From the IMG/VR virus record IMGVR_UViG_3300048586_000912, positions 1-58,246 of that record: a DNA stretch of 58,246 nt; one strand, 5' to 3'. This document shows positions 6,000 through 57,204 of the stretch, piece by piece. The position numbers were made by a program, and so were the translations under genes. The DNA is from a virus. Its lineage: Duplodnaviria > Caudoviricetes. The notes under the pieces were generated by a model. It was given only the letters and a program-made list of their open reading frames with translations. It was not told where the DNA came from and did no database searches. Position 1 is the first letter of the stretch. Each line of letters begins with the position of its first letter.

Positions 6000-7022
6000 T
6001 CAAGAGGCCTTGCGGGTGTCCGCCCCGGGCGCGGGGCGCTTGAGATCGATGGTGGTGGTGAAGCCCTCGCCGCGCGACAGGCTGTGCCGGATCGAGGCGG
6101 CCTGATAGGTGCCGTCGAGGCCGGGCCGCGTGCCGGAGACGGTCACCGGCGCGCCGGGCTGGGCGGCCACATTGCCGAGGATGGTGACGGAGCCCTCGCC
6201 CTTGTCGCGCGCGCTCTCGGCGGCGCCGCCCTCGGCCCGCTTGTCGGCCGCGTCCTCGTCGTCGGCGGGGCGCAAAGAGAGCACGTCGGAGGATTCCATC
6301 TCCTCCACGTCCTTGTCCTTGTAGGTGTACTTCGCCTTCTTCGGGTCCCACGTGCGCACCCTGACGCGCCGCCAGCGCGGCTTGCCGCGCACCGGCGTGA
6401 GCGACCAGCGTTCCAGGTTCACGCCCGCCGCCGCAAGGATGGGCACCAGCGGCCGGCCGGAGGCGGAGAGCCCACCATTGCGCGGGATCAGCAGCGCCTG
6501 GCGGCCCATGATCTTGAAGGTGGCGCCGAGATCCTCGGCGAGCATGGCGCCGAAGCCCTCGAAGGAGAGGCCATCGAGGGCGAGATAGTCGCGCCGGATG
6601 GAGGCAAGCTGCGGGTGCACGCGCACCGAGAGGCCAGCGGCCTGCGCCGCCTTGCTGAGGGCGTCCTCCACGCTCACATCGTCGAAATGGCGTTCGGCCG
6701 GCTTCTTGGCATCGCCCTGCGGATCGGCGCTTTTCGCCTCCACATGCAGTTCGCGCCCGCCGCCGCGCGAGCCTTCGCCGCGCGGCACGTCGACGAAGCC
6801 GGAGAAGACATGCGCCGCGCCGGTTTCCGTGGTGCCGAGGTCGATCTCCACCGGCGCCCGCTCGGGCGGCATCTGCAGTCGGCCCATGCTGTCTTCCAGC
6901 ACCAGGCGCGCGGTGTCCGCGGACGGGTCGTCGGAGAGGTTGACCTCCAGCGAGAGGAGGAAGGGCGCGACGCGCGAGGATACGTCGATGCCGCCCACGC
7001 GCACGCGGTAGAGCGGGGTCAT
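6000..7022 (-). CDS. Phage late control / baseplate hub protein (P2 gpD family)
   Basis: Starts MTPLYRVRVGGID; ends HSLSRGEGFTTTIDL; follows tail protein X. Confidence 0.85.
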   Translation of the reverse strand: MTPLYRVRVGGIDVSSRVAPFLLSLEVNLSDDPSADTARLVLEDSMGRLQMPPERAPVEIDLGTTETGAAHVFSGFVDVPRGEGSRGGGRELHVEAKSADPQGDAKKPAERHFDDVSVEDALSKAAQAAGLSVRVHPQLASIRRDYLALDGLSFEGFGAMLAEDLGATFKIMGRQALLIPRNGGLSASGRPLVPILAAAGVNLERWSLTPVRGKPRWRRVRVRTWDPKKAKYTYKDKDVEEMESSDVLSLRPADDEDAADKRAEGGAAESARDKGEGSVTILGNVAAQPGAPVTVSGTRPGLDGTYQAASIRHSLSRGEGFTTTIDLKRPAPGADTRKAS

Positions 7023-30411: not shown

Positions 30412-32373
30412 TCAGTCCCCCGCCGCGCCATAGCCGAAGGGGGTGTGAGAGGGGCCGAATTCGGCCCGGATGCGCACGCCGCTGTAATAGGAGACCGAGG
30501 CCTTGCCCTTCTCGATGCCGAACTGGTCGGCCGCCTTGGGCATGCGCCGGTTGAAGGTGGACTTGCCGAGCGGCGTCAGGCCGCTGCGCTCGCAATACTT
30601 GGCGAAGGCGGCATAGAGTTCGCCCGCCTCCACCGTGTCGTGCGGGTTGCGGGTCAGCTCCAGCGCCGCGCGCACGAAGGCGCCCACCACGTCGCTCTCG
30701 TCGCGATATTCCTGCGTCGCCGCCAGGATCTTCTCCGGCGGGTCGAGCGCGCCGCGCCCGAGATAGTCGAGCGCGCCGTCGATCATCCAGTTGAGGATGC
30801 CCGGCATCTCGGCCTGCAATTTCTTCGGCAGCGCCTTGTCGCGCTCGCCTTCAGGAATCTGCACCTCGAACGGCACCAGGATCACACGGCGCCAGATGCC
30901 GTCGTCATTGCCATAGATGCGGGGCTTGCGGTTGCACGAGATCACCAGCTTGAAGAACGGATAGACCTCGATGAATTCGTGGTGCAGCCGGCGCACATTG
31001 ATGGGCTCGGAGCCGGTCACGTCCTTGATGAAGCTTTCGTCCAGCGGCAGCCCCTCCTTCGGCTCGGCCGAGCGCACGAAGCGCGCCGCCGGCAGGCGGA
31101 TGAGGTCGGGCGTCGCCTCCGAGCCCTTTCGGTTCTGGTCGGAAACGATGCTCATCACCGGCACGGTGGTGGCATAGTCGCCCATGACGCGGGCGATGAT
31201 GTCCACCAGCGTGGATTTCCCGTTCTTCCCTTCGCCATAGAAAATGCAGAAGGCCTGCTCGCCCGTGAGCGCGGTGAGGCAATAGCCGAACCAGCGCTGG
31301 AGGAAGGCCCGCACCTCCGGATCGGGCACGCAGCGCTCCAGGAAGGCCATGAACCGCGGCGCCTTCGCCTCTGGGCAGTGGAAGGCCGGCGCGCGCTTCG
31401 TCATCAGGTCGCCGCGCGCATGGGGGCGGATGGAATAGCGCCACACCGTGCGCAGCCGCACCGCCTCTGGGTCGGGGCATTCCGGGTCCGGCTCCTCGCT
31501 CTTCTCGAAGCGCAGCGTGCCGTTGGCGAGACCGAGGGCCAGAGGGTCGGCATCGAGCGCCGAAAGCGGCTGGGCGAGATAGGGCCGCGCCTCGCCCAAC
31601 ATGCCGTCGAGCTTGCCGGAATTGCCGGAAGAGGTGGCGAAGCGCCGCCGCTGCGCCTGGCGCGCCTGCAGGGCCTTCATGGCCAGAGCGCCGCGCGAGG
31701 TCACCTCCTTCAGTCGCGCCGCCTCGGTCTTGAGCACGTGCGCGCGCCGCCGGCGTTCGGTCTTGCTGATGTCCTCGTCATCGAGGGCGATGATGTCGTG
31801 CGGGATCTCGCGCAGCCGTGCCAACGCCTCCTCCGCGTCGCCCACCGCCTCCCGCTCGCGCGGGGTCAGTTCCAGCACATAGGCCTCGAGGGCGATCGCC
31901 TCAGCGGTCGGGTGGGCGAAGCGGCGCACCACGTCCTCGTCATTGTCCGGCCGGAACCAGCGCGTGGCGTCCCAATAGTGCCAACCGAGGTTGGGCACGA
32001 AGAGAATGTCGGCGCCGTGGCGCAGCCGCAGCCGGCGCGAATTGCCGATGTCGTTCATGGGCTCGCGCGCGCAGGCGGCCAGCGTGCCATCGCCCGGGTC
32101 GAAGCCCTCCGGCGGCGGCTCCAGATCTTCCAGCGGCGCATCATCCGGCGGTTCATCATCGCCGCCACGCTCCATGCTCCCCTCCGGCGGATCCTCGCGC
32201 GCGGGGGAAGCCGGGGGCCGAAGGTCGCTCTCCCAATCGTCGTCATTCGCCGCGGCCGGCGGAAACGCGGCAGCCGGAGGCGCGGCCGCGCCCTCCCCGC
32301 GCACCAGAGCGGCGATGCGCTCCTCGGGCGAGAGGTCGGGCGGGGCGGCCGGCTTTTCGGCGGGGTCGGTCAC
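30412..32373 (-). CDS. P4-family / D5-like SF3 helicase
   Basis: NDIGNSRRL, GEGKNGKST, NRKPRIYGNDDGIWRR. Confidence 0.93.
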   Translation of the reverse strand: MTDPAEKPAAPPDLSPEERIAALVRGEGAAAPPAAAFPPAAANDDDWESDLRPPASPAREDPPEGSMERGGDDEPPDDAPLEDLEPPPEGFDPGDGTLAACAREPMNDIGNSRRLRLRHGADILFVPNLGWHYWDATRWFRPDNDEDVVRRFAHPTAEAIALEAYVLELTPREREAVGDAEEALARLREIPHDIIALDDEDISKTERRRRAHVLKTEAARLKEVTSRGALAMKALQARQAQRRRFATSSGNSGKLDGMLGEARPYLAQPLSALDADPLALGLANGTLRFEKSEEPDPECPDPEAVRLRTVWRYSIRPHARGDLMTKRAPAFHCPEAKAPRFMAFLERCVPDPEVRAFLQRWFGYCLTALTGEQAFCIFYGEGKNGKSTLVDIIARVMGDYATTVPVMSIVSDQNRKGSEATPDLIRLPAARFVRSAEPKEGLPLDESFIKDVTGSEPINVRRLHHEFIEVYPFFKLVISCNRKPRIYGNDDGIWRRVILVPFEVQIPEGERDKALPKKLQAEMPGILNWMIDGALDYLGRGALDPPEKILAATQEYRDESDVVGAFVRAALELTRNPHDTVEAGELYAAFAKYCERSGLTPLGKSTFNRRMPKAADQFGIEKGKASVSYYSGVRIRAEFGPSHTPFGYGAAGD

Positions 32374-34220
32374 TCGGCGGCCTCCCTGAATTCCCCGGCC
32401 GCGCGGCGCCTGGGCGCGGCATCGGCCATCAGCGCGCCGACGCAGGCGCGCATCTTCGCCACCGAGACGGCATTGCCGATCTGCTTGATCTGCTCCGTCT
32501 TCGTGCCCGCGAACTCGTAGGTGGCCTCCTCGCTGTTGAAGCCCATGGCCGCCGCCAGCTCGTGCGGCTCCAGCATGCGGAAGAGGATGTCGAACTGCCG
32601 CCCCTCTACCGCCACGGGCTCCACCAGGTTGACGCGGCCGGTGGCGCAGATGGTGGGCGCCGGCTCGGCGATATCGTGCACGCGCGGCGCCTGGCCTTCG
32701 CGCTCGCCGAACTGCGCGGCGATGAAGGCGAGCTCGCCGCGATTGGCTCCGGTCACGGTCGGCAACGGCTCGCCGGCATCGCGCACGCGGTCGCTGCCGT
32801 CATGGTGCGTCACCGGCATGACAATGGCGAATTCCCCGCCCTTAGCCGTGGTGAGGGTCGGGATCGGCTCGGCCACGTCGCGCGGGCCCGGGCCGCCGCC
32901 GGATTGCGTCACCGGCACCACCATGCCGAACCGCGCCTTTGCGGTGCAGGTGGGCAGCGGCTCCTGGGCCGAGACACAGGTCTCGCCGGAGCCGGAGCCG
33001 TAATAAGGCGAGATGAGCGCGTGCGCCGCGCCGTTGCCGCCCGTGGTCGCCGTGGGGATCGGGTCCGCGACGGAACGCGGCGCGCCGCCGGAGGCCTGGG
33101 AAAGCACGAAGGGCTGCACCAGCAGCCGGGCGCAGCCGGGGTGAACCTCGGTTGCAGCGCCGCCCGTCGTGATGGTGGGCAAAGGCTCCCGCGCCGAGCG
33201 CGCCGCCCCACTGTTATGCTGGGAAAGCACCAGCGGCTCGGCACAATACAGGTGCGGTGCATGCGCGGTCTGCGTGGGTAAAGGCTCCAAAGCGCTGGAA
33301 GCGGTGGACTGCCCCTTCATGTTGACAATGACCGGCTCGGCCAGCCCGATATGCTGCCCGCCGGCCGCGATGGTCGGCAGCGGCGCGTCGAGGCCTTGTG
33401 CCGCCATGTGGTTGCGCAGCACGACCAGGAACGGCTCTGGCCAGCCGAACTTGACGGCGCCGGCATGGATGCGCGCCAGCGTCTTCGGCGCTAAGGGCTT
33501 CGGCCGGTCGAAGATGGAGCGCCCCTTGATGGACCAGTCGATGATCTCCCGCGCCGGCCGCCAGGGCTGCGCGCCCGCAAAGAGGTCGCCAGCGATCGCC
33601 TCACGCTTCCTGTGCGTCGGCATGGGCCAGCGCACCTTGCGCCCATCCGAGCGCGCCATGAGGATGAAGCGCGAGCGCGTGGTCGCGTCGCCATAGTCGG
33701 CGGCGTTGAGCTTGCGCCATTCCGGCTCGAAGCCGAGGCGCTTCAGGGTCTCGATCCAGGCGTGGAAGTACTCCCCCTTGCGCGAGGCGATGGGCCGCCC
33801 GCTCCTCGGGTCCACCGGCCCCCAGCCGATGAATTCCCAAACATTTTCAATGATCAGCCGCTTCACCCGCAGCTCGGTGAGCCAGGTGATGATGTGCCAC
33901 GGGTCGGAGCGCTGCTGGTCGCTGGTCGGCTTGCCGCCCCGCGCCACCGAATGGTGGGTGCAGGTGGGCGAGGCCATGAGCAGGTCCAGATAGCCCTCCG
34001 GCACCAGCAGATGCGGGCGCACGGTGGCGATGTCCTGGACATAATGCCGGGCCGCGGGATGGTTGCGGCTGTGCGTATCGATCGCCACCGGCCAATGGTT
34101 CACGCAGGTGAGCACGATGTCGGCGGGCGCGAACCCGAGCCCCACCAGCGCCTTGATGGCGCCCGTGCTCGAGCCCCCGGCCCCGCAGAGCAGGTCGGCG
34201 ATGAGGATCTTGCGGCTCAT
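32370..34220 (-). CDS. DNA cytosine-C5 methyltransferase
   Basis: DLLCGAGG, ASPTC, IENV, R.RF, RML...EL, QIGNAV. Confidence 0.93.
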   Translation of the reverse strand: MSRKILIADLLCGAGGSSTGAIKALVGLGFAPADIVLTCVNHWPVAIDTHSRNHPAARHYVQDIATVRPHLLVPEGYLDLLMASPTCTHHSVARGGKPTSDQQRSDPWHIITWLTELRVKRLIIENVWEFIGWGPVDPRSGRPIASRKGEYFHAWIETLKRLGFEPEWRKLNAADYGDATTRSRFILMARSDGRKVRWPMPTHRKREAIAGDLFAGAQPWRPAREIIDWSIKGRSIFDRPKPLAPKTLARIHAGAVKFGWPEPFLVVLRNHMAAQGLDAPLPTIAAGGQHIGLAEPVIVNMKGQSTASSALEPLPTQTAHAPHLYCAEPLVLSQHNSGAARSAREPLPTITTGGAATEVHPGCARLLVQPFVLSQASGGAPRSVADPIPTATTGGNGAAHALISPYYGSGSGETCVSAQEPLPTCTAKARFGMVVPVTQSGGGPGPRDVAEPIPTLTTAKGGEFAIVMPVTHHDGSDRVRDAGEPLPTVTGANRGELAFIAAQFGEREGQAPRVHDIAEPAPTICATGRVNLVEPVAVEGRQFDILFRMLEPHELAAAMGFNSEEATYEFAGTKTEQIKQIGNAVSVAKMRACVGALMADAAPRRRAAGEFREAAE

Positions 34221-35005
34221 GCCACCCTCTCGACAACTTGAGCGCGAGCAGGCAGGCTCGAAGAACGATGGCACGACGATATGAGATACTGCTGGCGGTC
34301 GCGGTGGGAGCAGCCGGAGGCATTTCGGCGTCTGCCGCTGTTATTTGGACAAGCCGCGTACACGACGCGGCCTGGGTATCCCTCATGGGTTCGATTTTTG
34401 GTGGCTTCGTAGGGGGTGTTACGACCCTCGTTGCCGCGTGGATTGCGTGGCGCGGCATCAAAGCTCAGATGCTCGAACAAAAGAGAGCAATGGCATTTCC
34501 GTTTCGCGTACGGGAGTATGAAGCAATCTGCGAACGCCTCCCAGGAACGCAGAACATCATGCTTTTTTCGAACGTAATACTCAATTTGTTTGGAGATGAA
34601 ACGAAAACACATAATGAAATTCGTCAAACTATTTTCTCCTTTTTCGCAAAGAAAAAATTGTCCGAGAGCGAAATTCGATCGTTTCAGATACGGAAATTCA
34701 TCGAAGATCGATGCAGAAACACAAATGTCCTTTTGCAGAATCAATTCATATCCGCACTGGAATTTGTTCAACAAACTGCTGAGATACCGGTTGAGTATGC
34801 GCGCAGCATCCATGCAGATGACGTGATAAAGGAGCAAATTGAAAGTCGCATTTCGAACAATACTGAACAATGCCAATTCGCTATGAAGCGGCTCAGGTCG
34901 GCATGCACTCACATTGCCGAAAGTGCGGATCGTGACGAGCGCCGAAGTCGTGCGCTCAAAAATGAGATCGATGCCGTCCTCGGCGACCCCGCCATAGATT
35001 AACAT
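34217..35005 (-). CDS. Bridging ORF antisense to 34268-35002, coupled to both MTase genes
   Basis: Start overlaps the N6/N4-MTase stop (TGATG); stop overlaps the C5-MTase start (ATGA). Confidence 0.4.
   Translation of the reverse strand: MLIYGGVAEDGIDLIFERTTSALVTIRTFGNVSACRPEPLHSELALFSIVRNATFNLLLYHVICMDAARILNRYLSSLLNKFQCGYELILQKDICVSASIFDEFPYLKRSNFALGQFFLCEKGENSLTNFIMCFRFISKQIEYYVRKKHDVLRSWEAFADCFILPYAKRKCHCSLLFEHLSFDAAPRNPRGNEGRNTPYEATKNRTHEGYPGRVVYAACPNNSGRRRNASGCSHRDRQQYLISSCHRSSSLPARAQVVERVA
34268..35002 (+). CDS. AT-richer antisense accessory membrane protein (moron)
   Basis: 244 aa, two N-terminal TM helices, composition differs from flanks. Confidence 0.75.
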   Translation: MARRYEILLAVAVGAAGGISASAAVIWTSRVHDAAWVSLMGSIFGGFVGGVTTLVAAWIAWRGIKAQMLEQKRAMAFPFRVREYEAICERLPGTQNIMLFSNVILNLFGDETKTHNEIRQTIFSFFAKKKLSESEIRSFQIRKFIEDRCRNTNVLLQNQFISALEFVQQTAEIPVEYARSIHADDVIKEQIESRISNNTEQCQFAMKRLRSACTHIAESADRDERRSRALKNEIDAVLGDPAID

Positions 35006-36516
35006 CACTCCGCCGCCTCCCCTGCTTCGTCTGCGCCGAACAGCGGCAGCGGTGCGGTCTGAGCGCCGCGCGCCTTCGCTGCCTCTCGCTTGCGGGTGGC
35101 GGGGCCGGCGAGGCACAGGTCCATGCGGCGGCGAATGTCCGCCTGATACTCGGCCTCGCGCTCGATCAGCACGGCCGAGAACCCCTCGCGCCACGCCGCC
35201 TCGCCCGTAGTGCCGGTGCCCGCGAACGGGTCCAGCACCGTGCCGCCGGGCGGCGTCACAAGGCGGCAGAGCCACTGCATCAGATCCACCGGCTTGACAG
35301 TGGGGTGCTTGGAGCCGAGGCGGTCTTCCGCATCGGCTTTGGACGAATAGAAGAAGCGGGCGGCGGAGCCGCCGGAATCGGCATGGCCGCGCGAGACCCA
35401 ATCGCCTGCGGATTTCCCCATGGACGAGCTGGCATTATGTGCCGCAGCCGAATTGCGACGCTCCCCGCCCGATGAGGCCGCGGCTTCAGGAAACGCCCCC
35501 ACCACCTCCGGCGAGCCGTCGTGCAGCACGTTCGCAGGCCAGCGACCGAGGCCGGTGTCTCCAACGGCGCGGGAGCCGCCGAGGCCGGAACCAAACGTGT
35601 TGCGGTTTTGGTCGACGGAGGGGTTGGCCCGAGACACGCGCCGTGGCCGGGCGCCTTCGGTTTCAACCCGGCACCCATCGATATTGAGTGCCCCCGTCCC
35701 ATGCGCGAGCACATTGGCCGCCACGGTGCCGTCCAGCGGCTTGCGCGCGAGAATGATCGGCTCCCAAGCTGGTTTGACTGCCGTTCCCCAGCCCTGCCAA
35801 GTGGCGGCTTCAGGCGAGCCGGGCACATAGTCCCCCGGCTGATACTTGCGGTCGGCCAGCTTTTCCCATGAGCCATCCTTGTGCTGGTCGGCACCGGGCC
35901 GGATGCGCCGAACGGGTGCGCCGGTCGGCACCACTTCGCCTTCGACACCGAGGGCCTTGTCGATCCCCTTCGCCAGGTCGTGGCTCTTGGGGAAGCCCGA
36001 GCCGTAGACCCACGCCAGCAGCCCCTCGAAGCCGAGCAGGTCCATCACCCGCAGGAAGGCGGAAAGCTGGGCATCCGAAAGCGAGTTGACGAAATCGCGG
36101 ATGATGGGGTCGCGGCTCATCAGCTCCAGCAGCGTGTCGCGCACCTCGAAGCCGGCATCCTCGATCGCGGATTTCAGCCGATGGTCGGTGCGCGTGCCGC
36201 CGAAAGCCACGACGTGGCCGCCCGGCTTGAGCACCCGCAGCACCTCGGCCCAAAACTCGGCCGCGAACGCGGTCTCGCCGGTGTCCCACTGCTTCCCCAT
36301 GAAACCCGCCGAGGCGCGGGCATAGAGCCCGTCGCGCCCGTGCTGCGCCGGCGCCGCATCGGCCGCGCCGAAGCGCTTGCGGATGGAGACGAGCGCATAG
36401 GGCGGGTCCGTGACGACCGCATGGATGCTCGCGTCCGGCAGCGCGCGCAGCACCTCGCGGCTGTCGCCGCAATGGAGTGCCACCCGCCCGCCGAGGAATA
36501 GTTCGGGCGCGCTCAT
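35005..36516 (-). CDS. DNA N6-adenine/N4-cytosine methyltransferase (beta class)
   Basis: TDPPY precedes HPTVKP and DPFAGTGTT. Confidence 0.93.
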   Translation of the reverse strand: MSAPELFLGGRVALHCGDSREVLRALPDASIHAVVTDPPYALVSIRKRFGAADAAPAQHGRDGLYARASAGFMGKQWDTGETAFAAEFWAEVLRVLKPGGHVVAFGGTRTDHRLKSAIEDAGFEVRDTLLELMSRDPIIRDFVNSLSDAQLSAFLRVMDLLGFEGLLAWVYGSGFPKSHDLAKGIDKALGVEGEVVPTGAPVRRIRPGADQHKDGSWEKLADRKYQPGDYVPGSPEAATWQGWGTAVKPAWEPIILARKPLDGTVAANVLAHGTGALNIDGCRVETEGARPRRVSRANPSVDQNRNTFGSGLGGSRAVGDTGLGRWPANVLHDGSPEVVGAFPEAAASSGGERRNSAAAHNASSSMGKSAGDWVSRGHADSGGSAARFFYSSKADAEDRLGSKHPTVKPVDLMQWLCRLVTPPGGTVLDPFAGTGTTGEAAWREGFSAVLIEREAEYQADIRRRMDLCLAGPATRKREAAKARGAQTAPLPLFGADEAGEAAE

Positions 36517-37067
36517 GCCGCCCGCGCCTCGGCCTGCGCCCCGTTTGAATTCAGCGTGTTACACTCGATGTTTCCCGTGGAACCTGCCGCGCCCGCGCGC
36601 GTGCCCGCCTCGGGTGCCGTGAAGTCGGTGGGGTGGCGGCCCATGAGGGCGCAGATGCGCAGGGTGCTGGTCACGTCCACCGCGTCGCCGTGCTCGGCCC
36701 GGCACCAGGTGGCCACCGAAACGCCCGCCGCCCGCGCCGCATCCCGCATGGCCTGCTCGGCTGCCGAGCGGTAGAGCATCATCGCCGCCGCGAAGAACCA
36801 CCACAGGAATGGCCCGCGCGGGGAAAGCGGCAGGCGCCCCGGCAGCGGCGCGGAGAGCGGGCGCAGCGTCACGGCATCGAGGCCGCGCACCGCGCAGGTG
36901 GCGAGCCAGCAATCGAGCCGCACCGGCCGGCCCGCCCGCAGGGCCCCGAAGATGCGCCCGGCCGTGAGCGGCGCGATACCCGCCATGGCCTTGATGCGGT
37001 CCATCTCCGGATGGGTGAGCGGCTGCGCCGCCAGAACAGCGCCGAGGCGCTCATGGATAGTGCGCAT
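36513..37067 (-). CDS. XRE-like HTH protein
   Basis: MRDAARAAGVSVATWCRAEHG; start MRTIHER coupled via TGATG. Confidence 0.65.
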   Translation of the reverse strand: MRTIHERLGAVLAAQPLTHPEMDRIKAMAGIAPLTAGRIFGALRAGRPVRLDCWLATCAVRGLDAVTLRPLSAPLPGRLPLSPRGPFLWWFFAAAMMLYRSAAEQAMRDAARAAGVSVATWCRAEHGDAVDVTSTLRICALMGRHPTDFTAPEAGTRAGAAGSTGNIECNTLNSNGAQAEARAA

Positions 37068-37716
37068 CACGCGGCCTCCCCGATCTCGTCCAGCATGTCG
37101 CCGGTGCGTTCGGCCCGTGCCTCGTCCGGGCGGCGGGCGCGGCGCGCCACCTCGTGCGGCGCCCGCACGGGGCGCAGCGCCCGCGGCTCGTAGGCGAGCC
37201 GGCAGCAAGCGGGGCAATAGGAGAGCCCCGGCGCGGCCGGCGCGCCGCAGACCCTGAGCGCCAGCCCCCCCCCGCCACCGGCCACCGGCAGGCATCGCGG
37301 CCAACGGCGGTGAAGAGCACGCCTCCGGCCGGCCCGGCGGGCGGTGCCTTTTCCACCCCGTCATGCTCCGGCTTGACCGGAGCATCCATGCCCGCTCCCG
37401 GCATTGCGCCCGGCCGCAGGATGGGCCCTCCGGTCAAGCCGGAGGGCGACGGCGGGGAAGCGTCAGCGGCGCGCGCGAGTCCCGAACCGCCGTCATGCTC
37501 CGGCTTGGCCGGGGCGCTCGCGCGGACGGCCGCATAGCGCGTCTCGTTGCCGCGCAATTGCAGGCCTATGCGCATGCACTTGCCGATCACGGCATTGCGG
37601 CTCGCGAAATGCCCGGCCGCGCACATGGCGGCGGCGATCGCGGACGCGGGTTGCCCGTCCTCGGCCAGCCGGCGCAGCATCTTCTCGGCCTTCGGATCGT
37701 CCCACACGCTGCTCAT
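37067..37716 (-). pseudogene. gcrA: GcrA-like regulator frameshifted at a G9 tract
   Basis: SRNAVIGK..RIG N-terminus; CRWP and CG...SYC..C..LAY fall in different frames, joined at C9 (37265-37273). Confidence 0.8.
37360..37516. repeat. Three REP-like palindromes (GTC..CCGGCTTG.CCGG) in-frame in the GcrA linker
   Basis: 37360-37388, inverted copy 37422-37450, and 37492-37516. Confidence 0.8.
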
Positions 37717-38969
37717 GCCGCCGCTCCCATGGGATGGCTCGCGCGCGCGGGCGGCGCGAGCATATCGTTGAAGTCCTTGCCAGCCGGCGCCCAGATGGTG
37801 CGCACCAGGCGGCCGGGGGCGGCGTGGCGGGCCTCGGCGCGCCGCATTGCCATCTGCGTCAGGAACGGTTCCGAATCCCCGTCGCCGAGCAGCAGCAGCT
37901 CGCGCACGCTGTCCTCCACCGGCATGGCGAGGCTCTCGAAATCGGGCGTCGGGCCGGGCACGCGCACCTGCATCAGGCGGCCGGCCTTGTCCGGGCGGCG
38001 CAGGGTCGGGTGCACGATGGTCTCGGCCGCCTTGCCGGCGAGATTGCCCAGGTCGATGCCGGCGGCGAACACGTCGCCGGGCTCATCGGCGCCGAGGCGC
38101 CGCAGCGCCGTCCACACCGAGAGCACGGTCTCGATGCCCTCGCCGGCCACCATCCGCGCCGGGCCGGCCTCTGCGGGTTGGCCGGCGGCGCAGAGCCCGG
38201 CCCGCACGAGCAGGATCCGGCCGCCCTGCTTGGAACCGCGCGCCTTGCGCGCCGGCAGCACTTCGCCGGTCTCGGGATCGGCCAGCACCGCCTTGCCGTC
38301 CGCGGCGGCGAGGTCGAGCCAGGTGAAATGCAGGCCGCGGAAATGCCCGTCCGCGCCGGTGATGGCCGCGAGCATGGCCGGCCCGCGATGGATGATGCGC
38401 GGGCGCGTCTCGCCGCGCCCGTCTGCCTCGCGGCCGTGGAAATAGGGCGCGGCAGGCAGGAAGCGCAGCGCCGTGCCGGGCGGCAGCGCGAGCCCGTTGC
38501 GCCGGTCCAGATAGGCCGCGACCATGGGATGGCGCGGCATGGCCTGCCGCCACATGGCATAGAGCGCGCGGCGCTCCTTCTCGCGGAAGAAGGAGGCGGA
38601 CTTCTCGCTCTTCTCCTGCTCTGCCGTGCGCTGCGCCGCGCGCGCGGCGAGCTCCTCCGGCGAGAGGCGGTGCCCCTCCCCCTTCGGCGGCGGCGCTCCG
38701 GTCAGCGTCTCGCAGGCGGCGAGGAAATCGGCGCCGTCGAGATGCATGACGAGGCCGATCACGTCGCCGCCCACGCCGCAGTGCCGGCAGTTCCACAAAT
38801 TCTTGCGCGTGTTAAGCCCGAACCGATCGCTGCCGCCGCACACCGGGCACGGCCCCACCATCTCGGAGCCCGCCTTGCGCAGCCGAATGCCGCGCCGCCC
38901 CACCTCCTGCGCCACGGAGTTGGCGCGGGCCTCGGACACCCAATCGGCGAAGGCGAGGTCGCGGGTCAT
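37713..38969 (-). CDS. DNA primase (Zn-binding + Toprim)
   Basis: GPCPVCGGSDRF..WNCRHC, GEGIET, GDGD, DFND. Confidence 0.88.
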   Translation of the reverse strand: MTRDLAFADWVSEARANSVAQEVGRRGIRLRKAGSEMVGPCPVCGGSDRFGLNTRKNLWNCRHCGVGGDVIGLVMHLDGADFLAACETLTGAPPPKGEGHRLSPEELAARAAQRTAEQEKSEKSASFFREKERRALYAMWRQAMPRHPMVAAYLDRRNGLALPPGTALRFLPAAPYFHGREADGRGETRPRIIHRGPAMLAAITGADGHFRGLHFTWLDLAAADGKAVLADPETGEVLPARKARGSKQGGRILLVRAGLCAAGQPAEAGPARMVAGEGIETVLSVWTALRRLGADEPGDVFAAGIDLGNLAGKAAETIVHPTLRRPDKAGRLMQVRVPGPTPDFESLAMPVEDSVRELLLLGDGDSEPFLTQMAMRRAEARHAAPGRLVRTIWAPAGKDFNDMLAPPARASHPMGAAA

Positions 38970-39376
38970 GGCACCGCCTCGCAGACCGGCCGGTTGGCAA
39001 TCTCCAGCAGCACGTCGGCATGGCAGGGCGCGCCGCGGGCGCACCAGCAGGCAAGGTTCTTGCCAGCGAGGAAGCGACGGATGCTGCGCTGGTTGACGTG
39101 GATGAGATCGTCGTAGCCGCCCGAGACTTCGATCACGTCATCATTGGTGCACAGGTAAGTAGTCCGGTTGGGGTCCCAATCAACAGCATTGCGGAACGCC
39201 TCAACGCAGTCTTCAGCAGTCAGGCAGGGCCTATACTCATTTGTTGACCGATCCAGCATCTTTTCGCCGACGCGCCAAGAATTGCCCCAACGGGTCGACC
39301 GGTCGACCTTCACCGTGTTCTCCGGCATGCGCCAGCCCTTGGCGCGGGAAAGCTGGATGCGGCGGGGGGCGTCCAT
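38966..39376 (-). CDS. DUF4326-like protein
   Basis: RIQLSRAKGWRMP, RWGN, KNLACWC, CHADVL. Confidence 0.85.
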   Translation of the reverse strand: MDAPRRIQLSRAKGWRMPENTVKVDRSTRWGNSWRVGEKMLDRSTNEYRPCLTAEDCVEAFRNAVDWDPNRTTYLCTNDDVIEVSGGYDDLIHVNQRSIRRFLAGKNLACWCARGAPCHADVLLEIANRPVCEAVP

Positions 39377-55675: not shown

Positions 55676-55960
55676 ATGGCGCCCCGCTCCAACGCGCCGG
55701 CGCGCTTTCCCCCGGGCGGTTCCTGGCCCGCCGTGCTGCGGGCGGACATGGCTGCCGCGTATCTCGACTATCCAGACACACAGGCGCTCTCCCGCGCCGT
55801 GGTCGCAGGCGAGGCGCCGCCGCCCTCCTGCATGCGCAAGGCAGGCGCCAAGCGCGAGCCGGTCTGGGCGAAGGAGGTGCTCACGCAGTTTGTTGCGCGC
55901 GTGCACGCCGTGGCCAATGATAATGCCCCCGAAACCGAGAGCATCCGGGATCTCGTGTGA
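55676..55960 (+). CDS. Putative excisionase
   Basis: WP..LRADMAAAYLD wHTH, overlapping the int start. Confidence 0.7.
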   Translation: MAPRSNAPARFPPGGSWPAVLRADMAAAYLDYPDTQALSRAVVAGEAPPPSCMRKAGAKREPVWAKEVLTQFVARVHAVANDNAPETESIRDLV

Positions 55961-57204
55961 AGCCGCCGCGCACCACAATGCCTCTGCCCCGCTATGTGCG
56001 GCGCAAGCCCCTGCGCTCGGGCCAATGGGCCTATTTCTTCGAGGTCCCCACATGGGCGCGCAAGGCGGGCTGCCAGCTCGCCAACGAGGCGCTCGGCACC
56101 GACTATGCCGCCGCCGTGCGCCGGGCCGAGGACGTGTTGCTGCCACAGCTGGATTCCTGGCGCACCGGCGGGCTCTCGGATCTGCGGCCCATGGGCCCGA
56201 CGCTGGGCACGCTCGACTGGCTGATCGCCGAATACAAGGCGCACCGCACCTATTCCGAGCTCGGCCGGTGGACGAAGATGCGCCACGAGATCGGCTTCGA
56301 CCTGGTGGCGGGGCATGTGCTGAAGGACGGGCGCACGCTCGGCAGCGTGCCGCTCGCGGCGATCGAGACCGACATCGCCGACCGCGTCTATGACCGCCTC
56401 CTCCATGTGGAGGAAAGGGACGAGGCCACCGGCACGATTGTTCGCCGCGAGCGCCGTGCCACCGCCAACCACGCCATGAAATCCTGCCGCCGCGCATGGT
56501 TCGTGGTGGCGCGGCTGCACCCGAAGACCGTGCCGGCGCGCAACCCCTTTTCCAAGATGGGCCTCAAGGCGCAGGAGACAGCGACGCCCACCGCCACGCT
56601 GGACGAATTACGCGCCTTCGTGGCGGCCGCCGACCGCATGGGCCGGGCCTCGCTCGGCACCGCGGCCTGGATGGCCTGGGAATGGGCGCCGCGCGAGGAG
56701 GACGTGTTCGGCACCTTCGAGGCCGGGCACTACCGGCCGAAGGAACGGCCCGGTGCCGTCCGCGTCATCCACGAAAAAACGCGTGAGGAGGCGTGGATAC
56801 CGCTGTTCGACGACGACGGATCGGCGCTTTACCCCGAGCTGACGTCGCGCCTTGATGCGCTGCGCGCCGGCCGAATCGCCGGGCTCATGATCGTGCGCGA
56901 CTGGAAAGAGAAGGACCGCGAGGCGCCTGCCGCCTGGGTCACCGAAAGCGGCGACCTCACCTATATGCGTCACGAGGTGAAGCGCATCATCCGCGCCGCC
57001 GGCCTGCGCGACGAACTGAGCTTCCGCAGCTTCCGCCATGGCGGGATCACCGAGGCCGCCGACGCCGACGCCACCGACCGCGAGATCCAGGCCGTGACCC
57101 GCCACCGCTCGGCAAAGGTGCTGCCGCGCTACGCCAAGCGCACCATGACGCAGGTCTCGAACGTGGCCAGGAAGCGGCGGGCAAGCCGGGAGAAACTGGC
57201 GTGA
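55957..57204 (+). CDS. int: Tyrosine recombinase / integrase
   Basis: Catalytic R (APRE), K (HEKT), SFRH, TRH and Y (PRY). Confidence 0.9.
   Translation: MKPPRTTMPLPRYVRRKPLRSGQWAYFFEVPTWARKAGCQLANEALGTDYAAAVRRAEDVLLPQLDSWRTGGLSDLRPMGPTLGTLDWLIAEYKAHRTYSELGRWTKMRHEIGFDLVAGHVLKDGRTLGSVPLAAIETDIADRVYDRLLHVEERDEATGTIVRRERRATANHAMKSCRRAWFVVARLHPKTVPARNPFSKMGLKAQETATPTATLDELRAFVAAADRMGRASLGTAAWMAWEWAPREEDVFGTFEAGHYRPKERPGAVRVIHEKTREEAWIPLFDDDGSALYPELTSRLDALRAGRIAGLMIVRDWKEKDREAPAAWVTESGDLTYMRHEVKRIIRAAGLRDELSFRSFRHGGITEAADADATDREIQAVTRHRSAKVLPRYAKRTMTQVSNVARKRRASREKLA

Follow-up and report, generated by a model that had tools for sequence, protein, structure and literature searches.

The locus

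The stretch of DNA analysed here, referred to as the window, is the whole of the viral record IMGVR_UViG_3300048586_000912 (Duplodnaviria; Caudoviricetes; positions 1 to 58,246, hence 58,246 nucleotides, nt), a complete-looking record of a temperate tailed phage with about 70% GC. Within a minus-strand operon of this phage a low-GC gene, here called the cargo, lies backwards between two DNA methyltransferase genes, and the whole of it is covered by an open reading frame (ORF) of operon sense, here called the bridge. The features on which the argument turns are as follows.

34268 to 35002, plus strand: cargo gene (product P0001), ATG to TAA, 244 amino acids (aa), with an N-terminal hairpin of two transmembrane (TM) helices and a helical C-terminal part; low GC.
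34217 to 35008, minus strand: bridge ORF (product P0002), 262 codons from the ATG at 35005 (263 from the GTG at 35008) to the TGA at 34219-34217.
35003 to 35020, minus strand: up-junction, GGAGGCGGCGGAGTGATG, with a Shine-Dalgarno (SD)-like GGAGG, the methyltransferase TGA and the GTG and ATG bridge starts, as read from the sequence.
34217 to 34229, minus strand: down-junction, GAGGGTGGCATGA, with an SD-like GAGGG, the ATG of the C5 methyltransferase (34220-34218) and the bridge TGA overlapping that ATG.
35005 to 36516, minus strand: N6/N4 DNA methyltransferase gene (P0003; Pfam N6_N4_Mtase, 2.1e-23; PHROG 67, 2.6e-64), the upstream neighbour of the cargo.
32370 to 34220, minus strand: C5 cytosine DNA methyltransferase gene (P0004; Pfam DNA_methylase, 2.2e-23; PHROG 116, 1.4e-62), the downstream neighbour of the cargo.

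The initial annotation of this DNA had described a plus-strand gene at 34268-35002 interrupting the operon, and opposite to it a frame of 262 aa running from the stop of the upstream methyltransferase to the start of the downstream one. The coordinates of the gene hold and both junctions were confirmed in the sequence, the only correction being of 1 nt, in that the ATG of the C5 methyltransferase occupies 34220-34218 and does not begin at 34221. At the upstream end, the TGA of the N6 methyltransferase (35007-35005) is overlapped by a GTG (4 nt) and by an ATG (1 nt), both of them in the bridge frame, in the layout GGAGG-N8-GTGATG (35020-35003), and the same grammar is found at all other junctions of the operon. 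At the downstream end, the bridge closes as ATGA at 34220-34217, on the start of the C5 methyltransferase. The bridge ORF is thus built at both ends like a translationally coupled operon gene, its start overlapping the upstream stop behind an SD-like sequence and its stop overlapping the downstream start.

The TAA of the cargo abuts the ATG of the bridge, so that the cargo is nested backwards without a spacer; its own start codon is uncertain, a TTG at 34238 being also in frame. GC is 0.40-0.49 in 300-nt segments starting at 34350-34650, against 0.66-0.75 in the flanks, and through this AT-richer DNA the bridge frame has no stop in 262 codons, just as had been reported.

Codon usage of the cargo gene

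The bridge frame is antisense to the cargo gene and codon-for-codon in register with it, and for this reason it can be closed only by a TTA, CTA or TCA codon of the cargo. All three are replaceable by synonyms, and no other frame could be kept open more cheaply. The cargo has 16 leucine and 17 serine codons, none of which is TTA, CTA or TCA, while other A-ending codons are used freely (ATA in 7 of 23 isoleucines, GTA in 5 of 15 valines, GCA in 9 of 29 alanines). When third bases were swapped among synonymous boxes (50,000 shuffles per scheme), 7.5 antisense stops were expected and the frame was open in 4e-5 to 1e-4 of the shuffles (P about 1e-4). Stops number 6, 12, 7 and 12 in the four remaining non-coding frames of this stretch. 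The openness of the bridge frame in the window is not due to chance.

Antisense embedding across the cargo family

Relatives of the cargo gene allow the relation between gene context and frame to be compared. After two duplicates, one spurious match in a 1678-aa frame and one truncated gene had been dropped, 53 non-duplicate family genes were delimited. The context of each gene was called from the periodicity of GC at third codon positions (GC3) in the 720 nt to either side, a criterion that does not depend on the frame being tested, and a gene was termed embedded when opposite-strand genes lie on both sides of it. The comparison group consists of the other resolved contexts with at least 3.5 expected stops (n = 11), and the counts in this comparison include the held-out genes described below. 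The in-register frame is at least 98% open in 17 of the 19 embedded genes against 1 of the 11 in other contexts (Fisher's exact test, open against closed by context, P 2.2e-5), and a 4-nt overlap with the start of a downstream ORF of at least 80 codons closes it in 18/19 against 2/11. Taken together, TTA, CTA and TCA occur 15 times against 131.8 expected in the embedded genes and 63 times against 91.4 in the others; 12 of the 15 sit in a single gene, that of locus L207. Depletion of these codons relative to homologs outside operons had been proposed beforehand as a check on the idea of a bridge, and it came out as predicted. The embedded genes are far from being copies of one another, the nearest pair being 48% identical and the rest at most 33%.

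A held-out set of 15 genes, obtained from genus-level and class-level searches, was added after the rule had been stated. All six embedded genes among them are open and have 4-nt overlaps at both ends, and the two informative non-embedded genes stand at 13 observed against 13.4 expected stops and 5 against 9.8.

Codon counts point the same way. Among the first 13 embedded genes, with L207 excluded to leave 12, TTA or CTA serves for 2 of 326 leucines and TCA for 0 of 167 serines, with 20% of codons A-ending in the other four-fold boxes; the non-embedded tally is 31/441, 21/186 and 13%, respectively. Counted over 21 embedded genes, the in-register frame has 15 stops against 137, 225, 213 and 212 in the other four frames. 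At the up-junction of these 21 genes, a start/stop overlap is present in 16 (4 nt, once 1 nt), start and stop lie within 12 nt in two, and neither arrangement is found in three; the overlaps of the embedded relatives are of the same kind as that in the window, mostly in other letters. The downstream start is followed by A, giving [A/G]TGA in the bridge frame, in 20 of the 21 cases. As controls, ten other low-GC ORFs from the same loci were taken, eight of which have 52 observed against 70.1 expected stops. The two depleted outliers turned out to be bridged two-TM cargos themselves, L080 3231-3983 (minus strand) and L160 2767-3768 (minus strand), which are antisense-embedded, had been missed by the family profile, and have 0 of 6.4 and 0 of 7.7 expected stops with [A/G]TGA overlaps at both ends. 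Across the relatives, then, an open and doubly coupled operon-sense frame goes with antisense embedding.

The same site has been occupied differently in related phages. Two of them, L072 and L073, carry an N6 methyltransferase 73% identical to that of the window. In L072, the nearest cargo-free relative, this gene is joined directly to the next one by ATGA with nothing between them. In L073 a different family member, 29% identical, stands at the same spot in antisense (GC 0.37-0.47), and its in-register operon-sense ORF starts as GTGA on the methyltransferase stop and covers 94% of the cargo. The same layout is also found next to other genes in L043, L205, L002 and L039, where the bridge start overlaps the upstream TGA by 4 nt, the frame is open, and GCATGA stands at the downstream start.

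Several further observations concern single loci. In L073 the bridge frame closes while still 39 nt within the cargo and overlaps no downstream start; judging by GC3 phase, a further minus-strand gene lies upstream of the cargo (6206-6500), and the cargo may be the second gene of a two-gene antisense unit. The C-terminal domain of the L160 cargo is longer and of another kind. The gene L191 7038-8141 (minus strand; GC 0.47), from the locus of a related prophage, is not depleted (17 observed against 16.4 expected stops), and its product, judged by eye, begins like a TIR or DUF4062-type domain. Family genes also occur in tandem pairs (L211 1000-1731 and 1993-2730; L225 383-1066 and 1063-1806), and the antisense frame is free of stops in only one member of each pair.

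The cargo gene and the product of the bridge

The cargo is a real gene and belongs to a real protein family. Its AlphaFold model is all-helical, with a predicted local distance difference test score (pLDDT) of 70 and a predicted template modelling score (pTM) of 0.34; the confident part is the first 100 residues (pLDDT 73-93), with helices at 2-28 and 34-90. Two N-terminal TM helices are borne out by these model helices, by hydrophobic stretches and by a conserved motif in the second of them (TM2), in which W, G, GG, T, AW and Q are invariant in alignment A1.

A word-indexed protein search with P0001 returned only the query itself among 968 candidates, and a pattern search with it in viral contigs gave 40 pattern matches, of which 0 were confirmed. 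With phmmer against 1.84 billion representatives, 6 further proteins of the cargo family were found (E 1e-7 to 8e-4), and the family profile matches members in related phage loci and in bacterial genomes. Around a host genome the family was found in 8 of 401 genomes sampled at the level of the order, 44 of 401 at that of the family and 14 of 42 at that of the genus; in the class-level sample it occurs in 2 of 401, namely G001 itself and one other.

The cargo has no Pfam match at E <= 0.01 and none in PHROGs, PADLOC or NCBIfam. Below curated thresholds, Phage_holin_3_6 matches 4 of 19 members at E <= 1 (best 1.3e-3) and SLATT is reached at E 0.05-0.09, and in the atlas DUF4760 and the retron Ec48 effector score 0.79-0.81, with no named family at 0.9 or above. 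A reasonable guess, which we put no higher, would be that the prophage expresses the cargo as an exclusion or abortive-infection protein acting at the membrane. A consensus scan gave no sigma-70 promoter for the cargo and no terminator after its stop. One further feature lies ahead of the gene.

34229 to 34236, plus strand: box CTCGACAA, preceding the ATG of the cargo by 32 nt; on the minus strand its complement comes immediately before the SD of the C5 methyltransferase gene.

With at most one mismatch, this box stands 9-49 nt before the called start in 20 of 55 family-type genes, embedded or not, and it may be a promoter element of the cargo's own.

The reality of the cargo and the nature of the frame opposite to it were judged from the family matches and from three further kinds of evidence. 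First, some members (L206, L207, L226, L228, L246, L251, L257) have only the two-TM frame open, with 10-16 antisense stops, and the antisense frame of members from other contexts is closed by 7-16 stops. Second, GC3 phase fits the cargo frame in L208 and L039. Third, among the first 14 genes, the bridge-frame proteins give 36 BLAST pairs (800 bits) against 78 pairs (2530 bits) for the cargo frame. The substitution pattern by codon position likewise favours the cargo frame, with little weight, since the alignment was made on the cargo protein and is biased accordingly. On these grounds the minus-strand frame does not behave like that of a conserved protein. P0002 has no family in Pfam, PHROGs, PADLOC or NCBIfam and no tblastn match in 151 related loci; it is rich in Cys and Phe, many of its Cys deriving from antisense GCA, and carries a low-complexity tail opposite the TM hairpin. 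By these comparisons the bridge-frame protein is not conserved, and where an antisense overlapping gene pair would have both frames conserved, only the cargo frame is conserved here.

The surrounding operon

The minus strand of the window carries the tape measure, tail, portal and large terminase genes and, upstream of these structural genes, a replication and modification array (Pfam and PHROGs assignments) to which the two methyltransferases belong. The phage is called temperate from the match of an integrase-like gene at 55957-57204. The other genes of the coupled chain that were examined, in order of transcription, are these.

37713 to 39044, minus strand: DNA primase gene (Pfam DUF7146, Zn_ribbon_DnaG, Toprim_3; PHROG 510 DNA primase, 1.5e-70), the first operon gene examined; its stop overlaps the next start as ATGA.
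37051 to 37716, minus strand: GcrA-like regulator gene (Pfam GcrA, 1.6e-7); its stop is overlapped by the GTG of the next gene as GTGA.
36513 to 37054, minus strand: gene without known function, with no family in Pfam or PHROGs, its junctions being GTGA upstream and ATGA downstream; its start was set by the GTGA junction and not by the longest ORF.
30412 to 32373, minus strand: D5-like primase/helicase gene (Pfam D5_N, DUF5906, Pox_D5; PHROG 1156, 1.2e-120), next in the chain after the C5 methyltransferase, whose stop is overlapped by its GTG.

All six of the other operon junctions examined in this stretch (30412-39044, minus strand) are 4-nt [A/G]TGA stop/start overlaps, and each is preceded by a GGAGG-like SD within the last codons of the upstream gene. 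Several unrelated operon genes share the ending ...EAAE* or ...EAA* (DNA ...GAGGCGGCGGAGTGA), the N6 and the C5 methyltransferase both ending in ...EAAE*. Modules could be exchanged by recombination at junction sequences shared in this way. The ...GAGGCGGCGGAGTGA/EAAE* ending is also found on different genes in L160, L205, L222 and L261.

GcrA and CcrM are a cell-cycle pair of alphaproteobacteria, and the phage genes for a GcrA-like protein and an N6/N4 methyltransferase are reminiscent of it, the former (37051-37716) lying two genes upstream of the latter (35005-36516). With 39% of its length aligned at about 70% DNA identity, the C5 methyltransferase gene (32370-34220) matches Bradyrhizobium prophages and two records that bear the name of Microcystis phages (58,068 and 41,316 bp), a cyanophage label that is odd for such high-GC DNA.

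Interpretation and alternative explanations

It is probable that selection keeps the bridge as a translatable ORF, so that ribosome traffic and coupling can cross the antisense cargo. A foreign, low-GC accessory two-TM gene would have come to be nested backwards between two methyltransferase genes; ribosomes leaving the N6 methyltransferase gene would continue over the antisense RNA by way of the bridge frame and terminate on the start of the C5 methyltransferase, so that termination-reinitiation coupling would be preserved and a stretch of about 790 nt would be kept from being naked RNA open to Rho-dependent polarity. The bridge polypeptide would be a by-product. Loss of the bridge would carry its cost through lost coupling, Rho polarity or RNA decay. 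A ribosome bridge of this kind had been suggested in the initial annotation, and the suggestion gains support from the contrast in open frames between contexts (17/19 against 1/11), the overlaps of 18/19 embedded genes, the six of six in the held-out set and the lack of conservation in the product. Conceivably, transcription of the operon also silences the cargo during lysis; silencing had been raised there as a further possibility. More tentatively, though quite possibly, portable two-TM prophage cassettes of one alphaproteobacterial family may have become adapted to insertion, in reverse orientation, at any [A/G]TGA junction of coupled phage operons; their junction sequences and their codon dialect, which lacks TTA, CTA and TCA, would together give the ribosomes an uninterrupted, doubly coupled decoy ORF.

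Several points weigh against a selected bridge. The embedded family member L207 1339-2127 (plus strand, GC 0.41) has 12 stops and lies about 225 nt from the next gene, which may have a promoter of its own, and another embedded low-GC gene, L114 1067-1687 (plus strand), coding for a signal-peptide protein, has 5 of 6.8 expected stops and is unbridged. Conversely, the members L233, L209, L227, L244, L211a and L208 are stop-free or depleted, with flanks that are either unresolved or not opposite-strand, and these depleted non-embedded members imply that part of the signal may be inherited and not currently selected. Every downstream gene has its own SD-like sequence and so may be able to initiate without the bridge. 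For loci other than the window, GC3 periodicity of the flanks was the sole basis for calling a gene embedded, and the cargo starts are approximate. A 262-aa junk polypeptide with much Cys and Phe is costly to make. What the data establish is the anatomy of the locus, the depletion of the three codons, the association of that depletion with embedding and the absence of conservation in the bridge product; translation of the bridge is something that we infer indirectly.

Among the alternatives, the operon-sense ORF might encode a functional protein of its own and form with the cargo a true antisense overlapping gene pair. In favour of such a pair are its canonical coupled start and stop signals, like those of every other operon gene, the avoidance of stops across relatives, and a precedent in Pseudomonas phage Fc02 (PMC9936078), as far as the abstract of that report goes. 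We nevertheless consider it unlikely, since what conservation there is among the bridge proteins is no more than a shadow cast by the cargo (the 36 against 78 BLAST pairs given above), P0002 is without a family in the four libraries and without a match in the related loci, its Cys-rich composition and low-complexity tail are of the type expected from a shadow frame, and the cargo-free L072 has no gene at this position.

Equally unlikely, in our estimate, is a relic or hitch-hiking, in which the cassette spread by recombination at conserved junctions, the overlaps are remnants of the standard junctions, and the lack of TTA, CTA and TCA reflects ancestry or host codon bias and not current selection for translation. 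The recurrence of junction sequences (...GAGGCGGCGGAGTGA, EAAE*) at unrelated genes and loci does fit it, as recombination there could give overlaps for free; in-frame indels in the cargo keep the register automatically, and some non-embedded members are also depleted. Yet at identities of 48% or less the synonymous sites of the embedded members are saturated, and still 17 of 19 have 0-1 stop where 4-10 are expected. Moreover, embedded genes have more A-ending codons than the others (20% against 13%) and yet lose the three critical ones, the eight other low-GC genes of the same loci lack a comparable depletion (52 against 70.1), and [A/G]TGA stands at the downstream start in the bridge frame in 20 of 21 embedded cases.

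Chance combined with selection by the reader is very improbable: in-register antisense frames are often open, and non-embedded members too have the fewest stops in that frame (66, the other frames having 100-181), long shadow ORFs abound throughout the window, and the finding was picked from a very large scan, but the P of about 1e-4 in the window and the exact overlaps at both ends speak against it, and the 17/19 independent embedded relatives and the six of six held-out genes already contradict it. Just as hard to credit is the converse, that the operon-sense ORF is the only real gene and the two-TM cargo its shadow, for although that ORF fits the grammar of the operon, the cargo has no recognisable consensus promoter or terminator and its start is uncertain, this is already contradicted by the members in which only the two-TM frame is open (10-16 antisense stops), and the conserved TM2 motif, the confidently modelled TM hairpin and the GC3 phase of L208 and L039 also speak for the cargo frame.

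Relation to known systems

The bridge that we favour is a variant on translational coupling, antisense overlap and morons, all of which are already known. Morons are accessory genes inserted between conserved phage genes, as known from the HK97 and HK022 literature. Like them, the cargo is an accessory gene of deviant base composition, a trait that its relatives share, in a temperate phage, lying between genes that are adjacent in a related phage (none in L072, another member in L073); unlike them, it is inserted backwards with no spacer, is overlain along its whole length by an ORF of operon sense that leaves the chain of coupled genes unbroken, and has a codon usage that would be shaped by the opposite strand. 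Translational coupling at NTGA overlaps and Rho-dependent polarity belong to textbook knowledge. As in textbook coupling, the bridge has the [A/G]TGA overlap and an SD placed within the final codons of the gene before it, and the proposed benefit is a classical one, whereas the bridge "gene" appears to be kept for the passage of ribosomes over foreign antisense DNA and not for its product. The cargo also resembles two-TM defence effectors and holins (SLATT, the retron Ec48 effector, Phage_holin_3_6) in having an N-terminal membrane hairpin, a variable helical domain and a prophage location, but it reaches no curated family threshold.

The nearest published case is that of the temperate Pseudomonas aeruginosa phage Fc02, in which olg1/olg2 and gene 10 overlap in antisense (Ramirez-Sanchez et al., 2023; PMC9936078). 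According to its abstract, an exclusion gene expressed in the lysogen is overlapped on the other strand by gene 10 of the lytic operon, which also excludes phages. An accessory gene on one strand with a lytic-operon ORF over it on the other is common to both cases; in Fc02, however, both products are reported to be active in exclusion, whereas here the operon-sense product is not conserved and the pattern points to the act of translation itself. Neither 4-nt coupling at both ends nor codon depletion is described in the Fc02 abstract. Avoidance of stops in antiparallel ORFs has been documented in 2,898 cases, together with the rule that frame -1 closes only at TTA, CTA or TCA, and it was speculated that the translation of some such ORFs may matter without an essential protein (Moshensky and Alexeevski, 2019). 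The same frame logic holds for the cargo and its bridge. That study assigns no role or context to the phenomenon and does not contain the word "operon"; here the avoidance is tied to embedding and to overlaps at both ends. Within the library searched, the full-text literature describes no ORF as kept open to carry ribosomes across antisense cargo.

Biological meaning

If the bridge is maintained as proposed, it would be the translation of the other strand, and not the expression of the gene itself, that sets the choice of synonymous codons in a gene, and an ORF would be kept for the passage of ribosomes rather than for its product. This would explain how cargo of the lysogenic side can stand backwards in tightly coupled lytic operons without polar damage. 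Annotators would then have reason not to dismiss as noise a shadow ORF that is in register and has an NTGA overlap at each end. Should the arrangement be general, antisense nesting in coupled operons would become predictable, and shadow ORFs with coupled ends would mark translated bridges. The analysis also brings to light a new family of prophage two-TM proteins, present in 44 of the 401 genomes sampled from one bacterial family.

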